Positions 12,181-19,959 of a stretch of 32,000 bases of DNA are shown here, piece after piece. Source of the DNA: Aquifex aeolicus VF5 (GTDB lineage Bacteria; Aquificota; Aquificia; Aquificales; Aquificaceae); NCBI RefSeq assembly GCF_000008625.1, contig NC_000918.1:690001-722000 (forward strand), read 5' to 3'. Every line of letters starts with the position of its first letter. The first letter of the stretch is position 1. The position numbers and the translations under genes were made by a program. A model generated the notes under the pieces. The model was not told where the DNA came from. It saw only the letters and a program-made list of their open reading frames with translations, and searched no databases.

Positions 12181-12643
12181 GAAAGAAACTATAATATCTT
12201 CCATGGAGAAGTTTATTCAAAAATTTTTTGAAGAGCTTTACTTAATTCTTTTTGACTACGCTCTTAAGATAGCTCAAAATCCAATAGATGAGCTTTTAAT
12301 ATTTGGAAGTATAGCAATTGCCTACACGGTAATTTACATATCGGGTCTATTCTTTGCAAGAAAGATAAATCTACCCTACATAAGGAAAATCCTTGAAATA
12401 GGTATTAGCGTCATATTTTACTTCTTAGTTTCTCTTTTGGAAGGGAAATTCCCCCAGGTAGAAAGCCTGCTACTATTAAAAACGCTCTTTCTAGTTCAAA
12501 CAATTCGTGTATTCATCCTTTCCCTTGAGGCTTTTCAGGCTTTTGGATTTACTACCAAGCTTTTAATAAACATTTTTTCTATCCTCGGCGGTATTTCCTT
12601 TTTCATTATAAAACTGTCTCCCTTTACAAGAAGAAAAATATAA
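12161..12643 (+). CDS. Hypothetical integral membrane protein
   Basis: Multi-TM hydrophobic ORF directly upstream of the MscS gene. The start is uncertain: GTG 12161, ATG 12179 or ATG 12203. Confidence 0.5.
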   Translation: MIKATFMKETIISSMEKFIQKFFEELYLILFDYALKIAQNPIDELLIFGSIAIAYTVIYISGLFFARKINLPYIRKILEIGISVIFYFLVSLLEGKFPQVESLLLLKTLFLVQTIRVFILSLEAFQAFGFTTKLLINIFSILGGISFFIIKLSPFTRRKI

Positions 12644-12654
12644 AGTTTCTGCTA

Positions 12655-13965
12655 TTGAGTAAAACGTTTACGTTCCTCTACAAATTCTCTATTGCCCTGC
12701 TTTTGTGGATATTCTTAAGGACCCTTTTTAAAGTCGCGATTAAAAGGTTTAAAGGTAGCGGTTTTGAATCCGTGCTTAATTCCCTCTGGTTTGTTTTGAG
12801 TGCGTCTTACGTGGCGTTTACAGGCGCATGGATACTGAATCTCGTTAAGTTCTCCGTGGACTTTATAGTAGACGTTGCGGTATTTTTCGTAATTTTCTTG
12901 GTCTACGCTGCGGTATTCGGTTACTCGGTTTATCTGATAGGTAAATTCTTCGGCGACACGGACGGTTACGAGAATCTCCTGAAGAGCTTTAAAAAGTTCG
13001 CTTATATGTTTTCCATATACATACTCTACAAAAGCCTTATCTACTTGACGAACATTGAAGTCCTCGTAAAGAAGCTTGAAAGAATATACATACTTGAGAC
13101 GGAACTCGTTAAGATTTCTCTCTTTTCCTTTGTGGAAGGGATATACGTCTTCTTTGTTCTGAAGTACTTCTTTGAAACACTCGGAAACCTTTTCTACGTT
13201 GTGTATATGAAAAAGGACCAAGAAGTAGAAGCGGGTTCCTTTAGAACAATTACCGTAAACCTCGGTTTACTCCTTTCTCTCCTGATAGCGGGTGTGAGTA
13301 TAGGGATTACGTGGAAAGCTGCTGTTCCCATAGCGGGCGCCCTCGGCATAGGTTTGGGTTTTGGACTTCAGACCATTTTCAACAACTACGTCAGCGGGTT
13401 TATACTCCTCCTTAGCAAAAACATAAAAGTGGGTGATTACATAGAAATTGAAGGAAAGGCCGGCGCCGCTGTAGGAGCTGGAGGAGACACGATTTTCGGA
13501 AGAGTAGTCAGTATAAATATCCTTACAACCATTGTAAGGACTTGGGACAACGTGGAAGTCGCCATACCAAACTCCGAATTCCTGTCGAGCAAAATAGTCA
13601 ATTACTCTATGACTAACCCAATAGTGAGGGTCAGGATTCCCTTCGGAGTTGCTTACTCTTCGGACCCAGAAAAGGTAAGGGAAGTGCTAATAAGAGTGGC
13701 AAAGAGGATGCCCCACGTACTGCCATCTCCTGAACCGGACGTCTGGTTCCACGAAATGGGAGACAGTGCACTTATATTTATCCTGCTCGTATGGGTGGAC
13801 CTGAGGAGGTTAAGGCGACTGAAAGCTTTAAAGAGTTCCATTTATTATGAGGCGTGGAAGGAACTAAAAAAAGAGGGAATAGAAATACCGTTCCCGCAAA
13901 GGGACGTGTGGTTCAGGAACAAACTGAAGGTAGAGATAGAGAAAGACATCAAGCCCGAGCAGTGA
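12655..13965 (+). CDS. Mechanosensitive ion channel, MscS family
   Basis: 436 aa with a TTG start. N-terminal TM helices, then the MscS pore helix and beta domain (IFNNYVSGFILLLSKNIKVGDYIEIEG...V..I.....R..DN..V.IPNS). Confidence 0.85.
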   Translation: MSKTFTFLYKFSIALLLWIFLRTLFKVAIKRFKGSGFESVLNSLWFVLSASYVAFTGAWILNLVKFSVDFIVDVAVFFVIFLVYAAVFGYSVYLIGKFFGDTDGYENLLKSFKKFAYMFSIYILYKSLIYLTNIEVLVKKLERIYILETELVKISLFSFVEGIYVFFVLKYFFETLGNLFYVVYMKKDQEVEAGSFRTITVNLGLLLSLLIAGVSIGITWKAAVPIAGALGIGLGFGLQTIFNNYVSGFILLLSKNIKVGDYIEIEGKAGAAVGAGGDTIFGRVVSINILTTIVRTWDNVEVAIPNSEFLSSKIVNYSMTNPIVRVRIPFGVAYSSDPEKVREVLIRVAKRMPHVLPSPEPDVWFHEMGDSALIFILLVWVDLRRLRRLKALKSSIYYEAWKELKKEGIEIPFPQRDVWFRNKLKVEIEKDIKPEQ

Positions 13966-15208: not shown

Positions 15209-15236
15209 TTGACTATGATTAAATTTTAAGTAAAAT
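15209..15236 (+). promoter_or_regulatory. Candidate sigma70-type promoter of the toxin-antitoxin cassette
   Basis: TTGACT (15209-15214), a 16-nt spacer, then TAAAAT (15231-15236), about 20 nt upstream of the toxin GTG. Confidence 0.45.
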
Positions 15237-15252
15237 TTAACTTATAAGTTAA
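15237..15252. promoter_or_regulatory. Perfect 16-bp palindrome, candidate antitoxin operator
   Basis: TTAACTTATAAGTTAA is its own reverse complement. It sits between the -10 box and the toxin start, overlapping the expected transcription start. Confidence 0.45.
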
Positions 15253-15254
15253 AT

Positions 15255-15662
15255 GTGGATACGAAGAACTTTTACAGGTTGGATGATGGAAGCGGTAAGT
15301 ACGAGCTATGGATATGGAAAGGTTTCGATGAACAGTTTGAAAAAGTTACAAAGGGAGACACTAAAAGTCGGAAGAAAATTCTTACATGGATTGAAAGACT
15401 GTCACATGGAATTCCTACACAACCTGAAAAGGCAAAAGTGCTTAAGGGAAATGCGTGTAAAGGGTTATCAGGTCCAGTAATGGAGCTCAAACCTAAACCT
15501 TACAGAGTTTCATTTATTTGTTTGTGTAATAAGTACATCTTAGTAGGCACTATATGGAGGAAAAGAGCTAATTCAAGGGATAGTTCGGAAATAGACAAAG
15601 CTTGTAAATTGATGAAGGAACTTGTGGAGATGTTTTTAAAGGAGGCCGGTACATGCTGTTAA
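15255..15662 (+). CDS. HigB/RelE-superfamily toxin (Gp49-like)
   Basis: 135 aa with a GTG start. The segment ...VMELKPKPYRVSFICLCNKYILVGTIWRKRANSRDSSEIDKACKLMKEL matches the Gp49/HigB-like pattern (ELR...YRI.F......I.LL..F.KK......EI..A). It lies upstream of, and overlaps by 10 nt, an XRE-HTH gene. Confidence 0.7.
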   Translation: MDTKNFYRLDDGSGKYELWIWKGFDEQFEKVTKGDTKSRKKILTWIERLSHGIPTQPEKAKVLKGNACKGLSGPVMELKPKPYRVSFICLCNKYILVGTIWRKRANSRDSSEIDKACKLMKELVEMFLKEAGTCC

Positions 15663-16033
15663 GGACGTTGAAGAAAAACTTACAGGGTAACGCTGATTAC
15701 ATATACGAAAAATTGAAGTTTGATATTTCGGAAGAGCTTGCAAAACTTATGAAACAGAAAGGTATTACGAAGAAAGAATTGGCACATAGAATGGGCGTAT
15801 CACCTGCATACGTTACTAAAATATTTAGTGCGGAAAATATCTCACTTAAGGTTATAGCAAAGGTACTTTCCGCTTTGGAAGCAGATAATTACACCCTAAA
15901 GTTAATTCCTGAAGATAAAAGCTTACTAATAGATGAACTGGATAAATGGTACTATAGCTTTAAAAAGACTTACAGATATATACAACCAGAGGAGATAGAA
16001 AATGAAATTAAAGAAATCCCCACTGCAGCTTAA
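15653..16033 (+). CDS. HigA-like XRE-family HTH antitoxin with a C-terminal extension
   Basis: 126 aa. HTH segment GITKKELAHRMGVSPAYVTKIFSAENISLKVIAKVLSAL. SD AGGAGG about 7 nt upstream of the ATG. A roughly 40-aa aromatic-rich tail (LIDELDKWYYSFKKTYRYI...) follows the HTH domain. Confidence 0.8.
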   Translation: MLLRTLKKNLQGNADYIYEKLKFDISEELAKLMKQKGITKKELAHRMGVSPAYVTKIFSAENISLKVIAKVLSALEADNYTLKLIPEDKSLLIDELDKWYYSFKKTYRYIQPEEIENEIKEIPTAA

Positions 16034-16459
16034 AACTGTGAAAATAGTTCTTTTCACATAGATTGGGATTTAGAAAACATAAACGTAAGGGAAATTAACC
16101 CTCAAGAATACGTTGTTGATTTAGATTTTGATATATTTAGCGTTCAGGGGAAAAATACTTCCAATAATCTTTTTCTTATAGAGCTCCTTATAAAGATAAA
16201 TTATTCAAAAAGAAAAGAAAAGAAATTCCCTTTCAAAGCTAAGTTGAAGCTTAAAGCGTTATTTGATTTTATAGAAGATGTAGATGAAAGCAAAAAAACG
16301 CAGTATTTGTTATACAACGGCCTATCCATACTGTACAGTTTTGTGAGAGGGTATCTATTTGAAAAGCTCGATTTACTTGTTCCTGATCACAGGATAATTC
16401 CCACAGTAAACCTTTTAGATTTGATTCAGAAGAAGGCAAATGTAAAATCAAAATTATGA
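16002..16459 (+). pseudogene. SecB-like chaperone gene interrupted by a 1-nt frameshift (third gene of the TA cassette)
   Basis: ATG at 16002 with SD GGAG 7 nt upstream gives MKLKKSPLQLKTVKIVLFT, then TAG at 16059. The frame shifted by -1 is open from 16034 to 16459: ..FHIDWDLENINVREINPQEYVVDLDFDIFSVQGKNTSNNLFLIELLIKINY...FKAKLKLKALFDFIEDVDESKKTQYLLYNGLSILYSFVRGYLFEKLDLLVPDHRIIPTVNLLDLIQK. This aligns by eye along E. coli SecB (..EV..GGIF.I......L...CPNILFPYARE.I......G.FP.L.L.PVNF..LF). The track only shows a 71-aa tail from 16244. Confidence 0.65.
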
Positions 16460-17454
16460 AAAAAATTCTTCTCTCTCACGGAGGAGGCGGTGAAGAAACG
16501 CAGAAACTTATAAAGAACCTCTTTTTAAAGTACTTTTCAAACGAAATTTTAAACAAACTTGAAGACGCCTCACTCCTTAATCTGAGCGGTAAGGTTGCCT
16601 TCACAACGGATGCCTTCACGGTTTCACCGATATTTTTCAGGGGAGGGGATATCGGAAAACTGGCCGTTGCCGGGACTGTAAACGACCTTTCGGTTATGGG
16701 CGCAAGGCCTAAATATCTTTCCGTTTCCTTCGTAATAGAGGAAGGTCTCTCCTTTGAAGAACTTGAAGAGGTAGTAAAGAGTATGGCACAAGAAGCGTCA
16801 AAGACGGGCGTTCAGATAGTAGCGGGGGACACGAAGGTAGTTCCCAAAGGGCAGGCGGACAAGTTGTTCATTTCCGCGTCCGGAATAGGAGAAGTCGTTT
16901 ACGAAGGGCTTTCCGCCCACAACTTGAGAGAGGGAAACGTGATAATAGTTTCGGGAAGCGTGGGAGACCACGGAGCTTGTATCCTGGCACAGAGAGAAGG
17001 TATGGAGTTTGAAGTTCCCGTGGAGAGCGATTGTAAGAGTTTGTGGAACATGATTGAAAAGGTTTTGAGTAGCGGTGCTGAAGTTCACGCCATCAGGGAC
17101 GCAACGAGAGGCGGACTTGCAGGTGTTCTGAACGAGTGGGCAGAGCAATCAAAGGTAACCATAGAAGTTGAAGAGGAAAAGATTCCCGTAAAAGAAGCCG
17201 TGAGGGGACTTTGTGAACTCCTCGGATTTGAACCGACTCACCTCGCAAACGAGGGAATGGCAGTATTTGCAGTGGCATCCCAAGACGCCCAAAAGGTTTT
17301 AGAAATCCTTCGCTCCACTCCCGAAGGCAAGGAAGCCCAGATTATAGGAAAGGTGGTTAAAAAGGGAGAGCCGAAGGTAATACTTAGCACTCCTTACGGA
17401 GTAAAGAGGGTTATGGAACCGCCGGCGGGAGAACTCCTTCCGAGGATTTGCTAA
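16456..17454 (+). CDS. hypE: Hydrogenase maturation protein HypE
   Basis: 332 aa. MKKILLSHGGGG..., AIR-synthase-like fold, and the C-terminal PRIC motif. The start overlaps the preceding stop (ATGA). Confidence 0.95.
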   Translation: MKKILLSHGGGGEETQKLIKNLFLKYFSNEILNKLEDASLLNLSGKVAFTTDAFTVSPIFFRGGDIGKLAVAGTVNDLSVMGARPKYLSVSFVIEEGLSFEELEEVVKSMAQEASKTGVQIVAGDTKVVPKGQADKLFISASGIGEVVYEGLSAHNLREGNVIIVSGSVGDHGACILAQREGMEFEVPVESDCKSLWNMIEKVLSSGAEVHAIRDATRGGLAGVLNEWAEQSKVTIEVEEEKIPVKEAVRGLCELLGFEPTHLANEGMAVFAVASQDAQKVLEILRSTPEGKEAQIIGKVVKKGEPKVILSTPYGVKRVMEPPAGELLPRIC

Positions 17455-17801
17455 TGCACGAGTTTTCAATAGTTCAGAGTCTTCTCACACTGATAGAAGA
17501 TTACGCAAGGGAGAACAACGCAAAAAGCGTTACGAAGGTCGTTGTAAGTATAGGCGTCCTTTCTGGCGTAGAACCGCACCTTCTTGAGATGGCTTTCAAC
17601 ACCTTTAAAGAAGGAACGGTTGCTGAAAAGGCGGAGCTTATTATGGAAATAGAGAAGTTGAAGATAAAGTGTATGGACTGCGGGAAAGAGAGCGAAAAGG
17701 AAGAACTGAATATGCTCTGCCCCGGGTGCGGTTCCCTGAACACTCAGATAATAAGCGGGCAGGACATGTTTTTAAAGAGTTTGGAATTAGAAGTTGATTG
17801 A
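17454..17801 (+). CDS. hypA: Hydrogenase nickel incorporation protein HypA
   Basis: MHEFSIVQSLL N-terminus and two CxxC pairs (CMDCG, CPGCG). The ATG at 17454 overlaps the hypE TAA (TAATG). The track start at 17448 adds 2 residues. Confidence 0.92.
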   Translation: MHEFSIVQSLLTLIEDYARENNAKSVTKVVVSIGVLSGVEPHLLEMAFNTFKEGTVAEKAELIMEIEKLKIKCMDCGKESEKEELNMLCPGCGSLNTQIISGQDMFLKSLELEVD

Positions 17802-18835
17802 TGTTAATTTTACTGGACACAGGTATTCACGAAGTTGCATTCTTTACAAAATACGAAAATTACACGCTCTGCACCGTTGGGAGGAGGGAAAACTCAAAGG
17901 AAGAGGCACTACTCGGCTACAATTTGAGGTTCTTTACCTTCGGGAATTCCTCTTATTCTTACACGGTAGAGACCGTAAAAAGAAAATGTCTTGCGGGAGT
18001 AGTTACTAAAGGGAATATAAACCTCGTGCTTTACACGGGAAATGGAATACAAAATGTTTACGAGTTTTCTTCAAACGGAGAACTTATGCTGTGGCAACTG
18101 CTAAAAACGGAAAAGGGTTACTTTTTGGTCGGCGGTGTGAAGCGAAACAACTGGGACGCCTTCGTAGCATTTCTTGACAGGAACTTTAAGGTTAAGTGGA
18201 AGAAAAGGCTTGACTTTTTGGAGGAGTACTTTTACTCGGTTGCCGAGAAAGGGAACAAAGTTTACGCGGTAGGGAGAATAAAGAGGGGGAAAAACTGGGA
18301 TGCCCTCGTTTGCATCTTTTCGGATAACGGAAAACTTCTGGAGAGTTATTCAATAGGTTCTGAGGGGAAGGACTACTTCAGGTTTGTAAAAAATTTAGGC
18401 GGAGAAGTAATAGCCGTAGGAAGGAGCGAGGATAAGTTCGGAGACAGCGATTTTTTAATTTACGACTTTAAAAATTACTACCTCTACGACTCGGGGGAGT
18501 ACGATTACGCAAGGGCTGTAAACTCCTACGGAAACAGCTACGTGATTGCGGGTGAAACGAGGTTTAAGGGAAATAACGACGGGATTTTTATTCTTCTCAG
18601 CAAAAACTTCAGACCTGTTAGGGCATTTAAAATCGGCTGGGAAAACACGGATGCGGTACGCTTTATGGACAACCTGTTTTTCACAGGATACACTTACTCC
18701 CTTTCCTTTTCCGCGGACCTGATTTTGGGAGTGTTTTCAGAAGATTTTGAAAAGGTTGATGTAAAAAAGGTAAATAGAGTTCTTAAAAAGGAAAAAGTTC
18801 ACTTGAGAGACTTCCTTTCAAGCTCCTGCGTTTAA
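17801..18835 (+). CDS. Hypothetical protein with about 7 degenerate 45-aa repeats (SBBP-like beta-propeller pattern)
   Basis: Recurrent units such as YFLVGGVKRNNWDAFVAFLDRNFKVKWKK, VYAVGRIKRGKNWDALVCIFSDNGKLLESY, VIAVGRSEDKFGDSDFLIYDF and VIAGETRFKGNNDGIFILLSKNFRPV. No signal peptide. The ATG overlaps the hypA TGA (TGATG). Confidence 0.6.
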   Translation: MLILLDTGIHEVAFFTKYENYTLCTVGRRENSKEEALLGYNLRFFTFGNSSYSYTVETVKRKCLAGVVTKGNINLVLYTGNGIQNVYEFSSNGELMLWQLLKTEKGYFLVGGVKRNNWDAFVAFLDRNFKVKWKKRLDFLEEYFYSVAEKGNKVYAVGRIKRGKNWDALVCIFSDNGKLLESYSIGSEGKDYFRFVKNLGGEVIAVGRSEDKFGDSDFLIYDFKNYYLYDSGEYDYARAVNSYGNSYVIAGETRFKGNNDGIFILLSKNFRPVRAFKIGWENTDAVRFMDNLFFTGYTYSLSFSADLILGVFSEDFEKVDVKKVNRVLKKEKVHLRDFLSSSCV

Positions 18836-19945
18836 GATGAGGCTTTCGCCTTTTCAAGCGTATCCTTTACTTCTTTCCTTACCTCTCCTCCTCTCCAGGG
18901 GTCCTTTAGGGTTTCGAGCATGTACGAGCGGTCCACCTCGTCGTCAAACTCTTCAAAGTCTATACTCTTTAAAAGCTCTTTTGCTTTATTGTTTAGCTTT
19001 TCCGGCACTTCCCTTCCCGAAAGCTCGCACCAGATTAGGGTCCATGCCCTTGCGAGGGCGTAAGGATGGTATCCGCCTCCTCCGAGGTATACTCCCTCCC
19101 CGAAAACCTCACGAACGATGTTGAAAGCTTTTAAAAAGGCAACGTTTGAGAGGTTGAACTTGGAAAGGTAATCTTCAAGGAGTGGGTCAGTTCCGAGTTG
19201 AAGAAGGTAAACCTCGGGCTCAAATACTTCTTTGACTATTTCCAGAGATTTTTCTAGGGCAAAGAGGAACTCGTTGTCGTTCAAGCCCTTTGGCAGGGGA
19301 ATGTTCAGGTTGTAGCCCTTTCCTTTTCCTTCTCCTATCTCCTCCAGGAAGCCCTTCTCAAAGGGAAAGGCGTACTCGGGCGACTGGTGAAGGGACAGGA
19401 CGAACACCTGGTCTGTATCGTAAAAGGCTTCCTGAACACCGTCGCAGTGGTGGGCATCAAGGTCTATGTAGAGTATTCTCTTAAAGCCTTTTTTTCTCAA
19501 GTACTCAATTCCCACAGCGGGGTCGTTTATGTAGCAAAAGCCGTTTGCCCTGCTTTTAAAAGCGTGGTGCATACCTCCCGCGGGATTGAAAGCTACATTT
19601 CCCTTTAAAAATTCCTCTATCGCCTGCACTGTTGAACCCGTTGCGAGAGAAGAGCCTGTAAACATCGCGTAAGATACGGGGTTTTCGTATCCGCCTATGT
19701 TGTACTTTTCCCTAGCTCCCTTCGGAACGCACTGACACCTTTCCGCTTCCATTAAAGTGTTTATGTAGTCTTCCGTGTGGAATAAAAGGAGTTCTTCTTT
19801 AGTTGCGGGTCTGCTCTTGATTAATTCCTTCTCATCTATAAGGTTCATGGCATCTAAAAACCTAAGGAGTAGGGAAACTCTTGGTATTTTAAGAGGATGG
19901 TTTTTGGGATATCTGTACTTTCCGTAGTCTAAAGTTCCGATAAGT

Positions 19946-19959
<14 letters not shown>
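18832..19959 (-). CDS. acuC: Histone deacetylase-like / acetoin utilization (AcuC) family zinc deacetylase
   Basis: 375 aa. Class I HDAC fold signatures GGMHHA, DLDAHHCDG and GGGGY. I recall a 375-aa A. aeolicus HDAC homologue (HDLP) of the same length and family, and this may be it; not verified here. Confidence 0.93.

Follow-up and report, generated by a model that had tools for sequence, protein, structure and literature searches.

The stretch of Aquifex aeolicus VF5 DNA analysed here (32,000 nucleotides, referred to as the window) carries a toxin, an antitoxin and a SecB-like chaperone as three adjoining genes on the plus strand, and the same three genes lie in one orientation in an intact allele of the locus. 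Exact protein look-ups identified the toxin as aq_1017 (15255-15662), the HTH antitoxin as AAC07091 (15653-16033) and, beyond the chaperone gene, HypE (aq_1019, 16456-17454) and a U32 peptidase. The 135-aa toxin is HigB/RelE-like (Gp49-type) and full length when compared with its orthologues, and the 126-aa antitoxin consists of an XRE-type HTH (residues 29-75) followed by a C-terminal extension of ∼45 residues. The antitoxin stop codon is TAA 16031-16033, and the intact chaperone gene starts 32 nt before that stop in a different frame, at ATG 16002. Its Shine-Dalgarno sequence, GAGGAG (15989-15994), lies within the antitoxin coding sequence 7 nt upstream of the ATG, and the GG core of this element was invariant in an alignment of seven sequences. 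By gene order and predicted fold, the locus is a HigB-like / XRE-HTH / SecB-like toxin-antitoxin-chaperone (TAC) cassette that is unannotated in A. aeolicus VF5.

Upstream of the toxin gene, a promoter-like site on the plus strand (15209-15236; TTGACT, 16 nt, TAAAAT) agrees with the consensus at 10 of 12 positions, a consensus match only. A perfect palindrome of 10+10 nt, ATTTAACTTA/TAAGTTAAAT (15235-15254), with 100% complementary arms, abuts the toxin start, and its core, AACTTATAAGTT, is kept in L008 and L009, two distant cassettes homologous to this one. This palindrome is a likely candidate for an operator of the HTH antitoxin. Rfam at the gathering threshold found no family, and ARAGORN no tRNA, anywhere in the window. 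Away from the cassette, three copies of the 30-nt repeat GTCGCAATCCCTCACTATTAGGGCGTAACC occur at 2063-2224 with a spacing of 66 nt, two of them identical and one 77% identical; judged from the repeats alone, this looks like a minimal CRISPR-type array.

The toxin matched the Pfam Gp49 family with an E value of 0.002 and 18.6 bits, below the cut-off of 23.9. Its structural model (pLDDT 87.5) gave as best PDB matches HigB of S. pneumoniae (6AF4, E 5e-4), HigB2 of V. cholerae and RelE of M. jannaschii, and the toxin is thus predicted to adopt a RelE-type fold. The antitoxin matched HTH_3 with an E value of 1.9e-10, and alignment with three orthologues showed that the tail following the HTH contains an aromatic/basic stretch, WYYSFKKTYRY. 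By analogy with characterised systems (PMC5105189, PMC6377645), we regard this C-terminal extension as a candidate chaperone-addiction (ChAD) segment; such segments show no sequence similarity between systems (PMC5105189).

The initial annotation, made from the DNA letters and their open reading frames, had placed a SecB-like chaperone after the toxin and the HTH antitoxin, and profile and fold matches support that identification. An AlphaFold2 model of the intact chaperone (pLDDT 78, pTM 0.74) contains four strands, one long helix and a helix at the C-terminus, and the top 19 Foldseek matches in the PDB were all either Rv1957 of M. tuberculosis (5MTW, E 4.6e-7) or SecB (1OZB, 1FX3, 1QYN), so that the protein is predicted to have the SecB fold. 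Against Pfam SecB (PF02556), the intact allele scored 20.0 bits, below the gathering cut-off of 26 bits, and five of nine relatives tested gave similarly sub-threshold scores of 19-25 bits. A PDB search with a sequence profile built from a four-member alignment returned no match even at E = 10, and NCBIfam gave nothing above cut-off for either the toxin or the chaperone. It is thus only through the fold that kinship with SecB can be recognised. A search with the SecB-like profile produced 438 matches, and the 150 listed were mostly of 130-180 aa.

Searching with the repaired protein gave a match of 152 aa, 99% identical over the whole query, encoded on a Logan contig of 22.6 kb from run ERR15087784; this contig and the window are collinear. 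Three further homologues, at 61%, 54% and 37% identity, are encoded by single ORFs of 145-152 aa. The toxin-antitoxin-chaperone order recurs in three other Aquificae-type contigs, within neighbourhoods that are unrelated to one another, which suggests that the cassette is mobile among Aquificae. All three homologous cassettes have a toxin-antitoxin overlap of 8-10 nt and a chaperone gene that begins 32 nt ahead of the antitoxin stop codon. Across these cassettes (L005, L008 and L009), the neighbours are a PAPS-reductase-like gene, IstB and TonB genes, and dxr and ribosomal protein genes. A scan of genome contigs with the repaired SecB-like protein found no relative, the source genome being seemingly masked there.

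Relation to known toxin-antitoxin-chaperone systems

The gene order is that of the M. tuberculosis TAC system (HigB1-HigA1-SecB^TA, Rv1955-Rv1956-Rv1957) and of the HigBA-type TAC system of Geobacter lovleyi (PMC5105189, PMC6377645), with which the VF5 cassette also shares a HigB/RelE-like toxin and an XRE-type HTH antitoxin bearing a C-terminal extension. Rv1957 is the best PDB match (5MTW) for the predicted fold of the VF5 chaperone, with an identity of only 16-19% over the structural alignment. Unlike these two systems, the VF5 cassette has a 32-nt overlap between chaperone and antitoxin genes, kept across four cassettes, its chaperone falls below the Pfam SecB gathering cut-off (20 versus 26 bits), and its chaperone gene is split in the VF5 record. 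The predicted four-stranded sheet, long helix and C-terminal helix are also those of export SecB from E. coli (1QYN) and H. influenzae (1FX3/1OZB), which matched with Foldseek E values of 2e-6 to 2e-5, TM scores of 0.45-0.56 (normalised to query length) and identities of 10-15%. However, the VF5 gene lies in a TA operon and not in the housekeeping context of export SecB, and no SecA-binding role is implied. The tripartite design is also that of the HigBAC/CmdTAC-type antiphage TAC systems of E. coli, in which a SecB-like chaperone guards a ChAD-bearing antitoxin (10.1101/2024.02.24.581848; PMC11618068), and the VF5 cassette resembles mobile defence modules in occurring in differing genomic contexts among relatives. 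The toxin of CmdTAC is, however, an ADP-ribosyltransferase, whereas that of VF5 is predicted to be of the RelE fold, and phage sensing is not evidenced for the VF5 cassette.

On the model of the TAC systems of M. tuberculosis and others (PMC5105189, PMC6377645), the C-terminal extension of the antitoxin would be bound by the chaperone; the antitoxin in its bound form would stay soluble and be shielded from degradation and, preserved in this way, would keep the RNase toxin silent. We infer that an antitoxin held by its chaperone in this manner may be the mode of action at the VF5 locus. In a search of CC-licensed PMC and bioRxiv articles, three papers were found to name Aquifex together with a SecB-like protein, and none of them connects the genus with a TA chaperone; nor does PMC5105189.

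Position of the lesion in the chaperone gene

In the window, the chaperone gene is broken into two frames, as the initial annotation had described. The ORF that begins at ATG 16002, preceded by a good Shine-Dalgarno sequence, ends after 19 codons at TAG 16059-16061 and reads MKLKKSPLQLKTVKIVLFT; codons 1-15 of this 5' fragment (16002-16061) are authentic and the last four are out of frame. The body of the gene lies in the antitoxin frame, which is open from 16034 to TGA 16457-16459, reads NCENSSFHIDWDLEN...KSKL and, as had been claimed, contains no ATG, GTG or TTG until TTG 16244. Codons 17-152 of the intact allele, with the stop codon, correspond to 16049-16459.

The initial annotation had proposed that one T was missing from the run TTTT at 16051-16054. 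Adding a T there does give an ORF of 152 aa (about 151 had been predicted), but T is not the base that is really missing. This repair (...VKIVLFHIDW...) was rejected, the TTTT run being the same in intact and broken alleles. Near-identical alleles indicate instead that the window lacks an A between G16047 and T16048 (ATAG[A]TTC), within codon 16, which is GAT (Asp) in the intact allele; contigs from ERR15087784 and SRR22575695 read ATAGATTC, whereas the window and SRR29904085 read ATAGTTC. The intact allele encodes 152 aa and reads ...TVKIDSFHIDW..., and since the homologues have KINEL, NIESE and FFEKE at this point, KIDSF fits better than KIVLF. The lesion is separated by only four codons from the antitoxin TAA. 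It falls in the middle of the predicted strand β1 (residues 8-22 in the model of the intact allele); in Rv1957, the β1 strand forms the dimer interface and carries the ChAD-contacting residues D27 and R29 (PMC6377645). The lesion thus divides a strand used for dimerization and ChAD contact in Rv1957, and by this analogy the split product should be inactive.

The gene body does share the antitoxin frame, which the initial annotation had pointed out, but this is uninformative: in every cassette the intact chaperone gene is read in frame +1 with respect to that of the antitoxin, and any 1-nt deletion would therefore bring the two into register automatically. A comparison with orthologues had been proposed as a check for a shared break, and none has it; every homologue encodes the chaperone in one frame. 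This bears directly on the idea that recoding might bridge the split, two forms of which had been suggested. Programmed -1 ribosomal frameshifting or transcriptional slippage would restore a full-length chaperone, and a P-site slip of tRNA-Phe from UUC (16053-16055) to UUU (16052-16054), giving ...KIVLFHIDW..., is sterically possible. A small hairpin also spans the site (z = -2.0 for a 121-nt stretch), formed by the short inverted repeat GTGAAAA...TTTTCAC (16038-16058, plus strand, ∼-6.7 kcal/mol) with the lesion in its loop, to which we assign no function. However, the split is missing from near-identical alleles in two read sets and from every homologue, a codon listing of 16034-16058 is free of X XXY YYZ heptamers, Rfam finds nothing, and the only local hairpin encloses the candidate slip site and does not lie 5-9 nt downstream of it. 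For slippage, the longest runs are A4 (16041-16044) and T4 (16051-16054), far shorter than known slippage tracts, and the A whose insertion repairs the gene stands in non-repetitive sequence. We therefore regard frameshifting or slippage as highly improbable. Readthrough of the antitoxin TAA (16031-16033), which would yield an antitoxin-chaperone fusion, has in its favour that the frame stays continuous past the stop, but that continuity is the automatic one just described and intact cassettes use the other frame. Neither a readthrough context nor conservation is present, and the fusion would be without the N-terminal half of β1, a strand that in Rv1957 builds the dimer interface of SecB and contributes to the ChAD site (PMC6377645); the chance that readthrough operates here is close to negligible. 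Slippage and readthrough thus fail as explanations, the intact allele and all orthologues using one frame distinct from that of the antitoxin, and recoding of any kind at the split is very unlikely. This negative outcome spares experimental effort on the candidate.

Alleles in other sequencing projects

Beside the reference, exact-protein look-ups returned the locus from three sequencing projects. SRR29904085, together with a second sample, showed no difference from the window over 20,216 nt, missing A included, and SRR29904083 gave the same gene calls as the window. The extra A is present in SRR22575694/5 (contigs of 900, 7681, 5426 and 2271 nt); the 900-nt contig of SRR22575695, assembled de novo, is identical to the window save for this base and encodes an intact chaperone of 152 aa. 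The 22.6-kb contig of ERR15087784, also assembled de novo and 99.95% identical to the window, likewise has the extra A and an intact chaperone, and differs from the window by five substitutions and five single-base indels over 19,041 aligned columns. The ten sites are 8425, 10228, 12615, 14633, 15521, 16047/48, 18809, 18840, 19991 and 21185. SRR22575694/5 share all five of the differences of ERR15087784 that fall within the stretch they cover, namely an extra A after each of 16047 and 18809, an extra G after 18840, and the substitutions C to G (19991) and A to G (21185). A literature search of CC-licensed PMC and bioRxiv articles found the run accessions and their prefixes in no paper, and nothing relevant on VF5 resequencing, reference errors or mock communities containing VF5.

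The ERR15087784 contig is the reciprocal of the window, with a broken toxin gene and an intact chaperone gene. Its toxin gene lacks one T (window 15521, equivalent to position 5520 in L001 and 9520 in L013) in TTTGTTTG, leaving a product of 95 aa from which the conserved C-terminal part is gone, and this loss is private to ERR15087784 and not seen in SRR22575694/5. Three haplotypes thus exist at two sites 526 nt apart: both genes intact (SRR22575695), the chaperone gene split (window, SRR29904083/85) and the toxin gene split (ERR15087784).

We polarised the differences using five Aquifex MAG loci, relatives of DnaE and solved DnaE structures as outgroups. The window was derived at all seven polarisable sites and the other branch at none, an asymmetry with a binomial p of ∼0.008 under equal branch rates, and the derived changes on the window are gene-damaging or at conserved residues, of a sort that selection tends to eliminate. 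Errors in a record are expected to leave such a pattern. Besides the SecB-like gene, split at 16047/48 in the window and intact with 152 aa in the other allele, an MscS-type gene is split at 12615 into a gene call of 146 aa (160 aa if counted from the first GTG) and a 436-aa product, as against an intact product of 587 aa. At 18840, the HDLP protein ends in KAKASS in the window, in KAKALILNAGA in ERR15087784, and in KAKALILNA or close variants in the five MAGs. On the minus strand, gyrB of the window has F659 (21185) where five of five MAGs have L, and dnaE has F401 (10228) in place of the L found within the strongly conserved motif LLFERFLNPER in the Thermus aquaticus and E. coli chains, and T1002 (8425) where seven of eight relatives have A; these three residues of the window are peculiar to the reference. 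The remaining site, 19991, polarises weakly, with a Usp codon CTG in the window and CTC in three of five MAGs. ERR15087784 has L, A and L at DnaE 401, DnaE 1002 and GyrB 659, with which SRR22575694/5 agree (GyrB only).

Several observations accompany these sites. The MscS-type ORFs of the window (12161/12203-12643 and 12655-13965) are separated by a missing G after 12615 (CTGTC versus CTGGTC), and the SRR29904083/85 contigs share the split. The gaps at 18809 and 18840, 31 nt apart, alter the C-termini of two convergent genes with respect to ERR15087784 and SRR22575694/5: the gene at 17798-18835 encodes 345 aa in the window versus 346 aa, and the HDLP gene at 18832-19959 encodes 375 aa versus 380 aa. 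The HDLP structure 1C3P was considered as an arbiter of the 18840 site and rejected; it ends at residue 375 as the reference does, an end that would be imposed by any 3' PCR primer based on the reference sequence. 1C3P also differs from the genomic translation of both the window and ERR15087784 at residues 35 (K versus L) and 146 (N versus D), for which PCR changes or a choice made at deposition are possibilities.

Error in the record or mutation in the organism

The initial annotation had offered four explanations for the split, of which an error in the record and a genuine inactivating mutation survive. It is probable, though by no means assured, that the split is an error in the 1998 Sanger record of VF5 and that the organism would carry an intact gene. 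We favour such an error over a VF5-specific frameshift because the window is derived, and often damaged, at all seven polarisable sites. The intact alleles of two other projects and the single-frame homologues also speak for it. The 1998 VF5 genome was reportedly a low-coverage Sanger assembly of the 1990s, and the density of differences is compatible with that. This reading has ERR15087784 and SRR22575694/5 represent VF5 itself, which we infer to be more likely than a wild sister population: two 30-nt probes that accept either allele, for the SecB-like and the GyrB sites, had no match in JGI metagenomes, and the nearest MAGs reach a protein identity of only 80-89%, so that contigs with 99.95% identity to the window more likely come from VF5. 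The initial annotation had named a homopolymer sequencing error among its explanations, but the lesion lies outside that homopolymer, and a missing A away from a homopolymer is not at the classic place of an undercall. Also against an error, the contigs of a third project (SRR29904083/85) match the window exactly, missing A included, and four of the five substitutions run from G:C to A:T toward the window, which fits real mutation at high temperature as well. Should SRR29904083-85 come from actual sequencing of DNA from VF5, the record would stand and the frameshift would be genuine.

The less likely reading is a genuine mutation, private to the sequenced clone or the VF5 lineage, which would have lost a functional TAC chaperone with an intact toxin and an antitoxin that keeps its C-terminal extension. 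In that case the cassette would be in decay, or its antitoxin would have no strict need of the chaperone, and the sister lineage of ERR15087784 would have inactivated the toxin instead. The contigs of SRR29904085 and SRR29904083 that are identical to the window including the lesion, the three haplotypes, which resemble those expected from relaxed selection on a TA cassette, and the substitution spectrum biased from G:C to A:T are all consistent with this. However, all seven polarisable differences fall on the window branch within 19 kb, among them the splits of two conserved genes and a substitution in a strongly conserved DnaE motif. Extrapolated to 1.55 Mb, this corresponds to roughly 700 private changes, far more than drift in the laboratory would bring about, and such a one-sided set is not what natural sister strains would show. 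In characterised TAC systems, moreover, a cell that loses the chaperone but keeps an intact toxin would be expected to suffer (PMC5105189, PMC6377645). We consider a genuine mutation possible but on the whole doubtful, and return to an error in the record as the reading that we prefer.

For users of the genome, about one base in every 2 kb of the reference record appears questionable in these 19 kb. Among the features touched are the split gene for an MscS-type channel, the C-terminal end of HDLP, a deacetylase that has been much studied, and residues in DnaE and GyrB; these entries should be checked before cloning or modelling. It is rather unlikely that the frameshift is real in living VF5, with a toxin and a ChAD-type antitoxin tolerated without the chaperone and a near-clonal sister that broke the toxin. 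If true, this would provide a natural reciprocal knock-out pair showing the decay of chaperone addiction, or would point to some means of compensation, for example -1 slippage at a low level at CUU UUC or an antitoxin that is independent of its chaperone at 85-95 °C. Structural studies of chaperone addiction could conveniently draw stable proteins from a TAC system of a hyperthermophile such as this.
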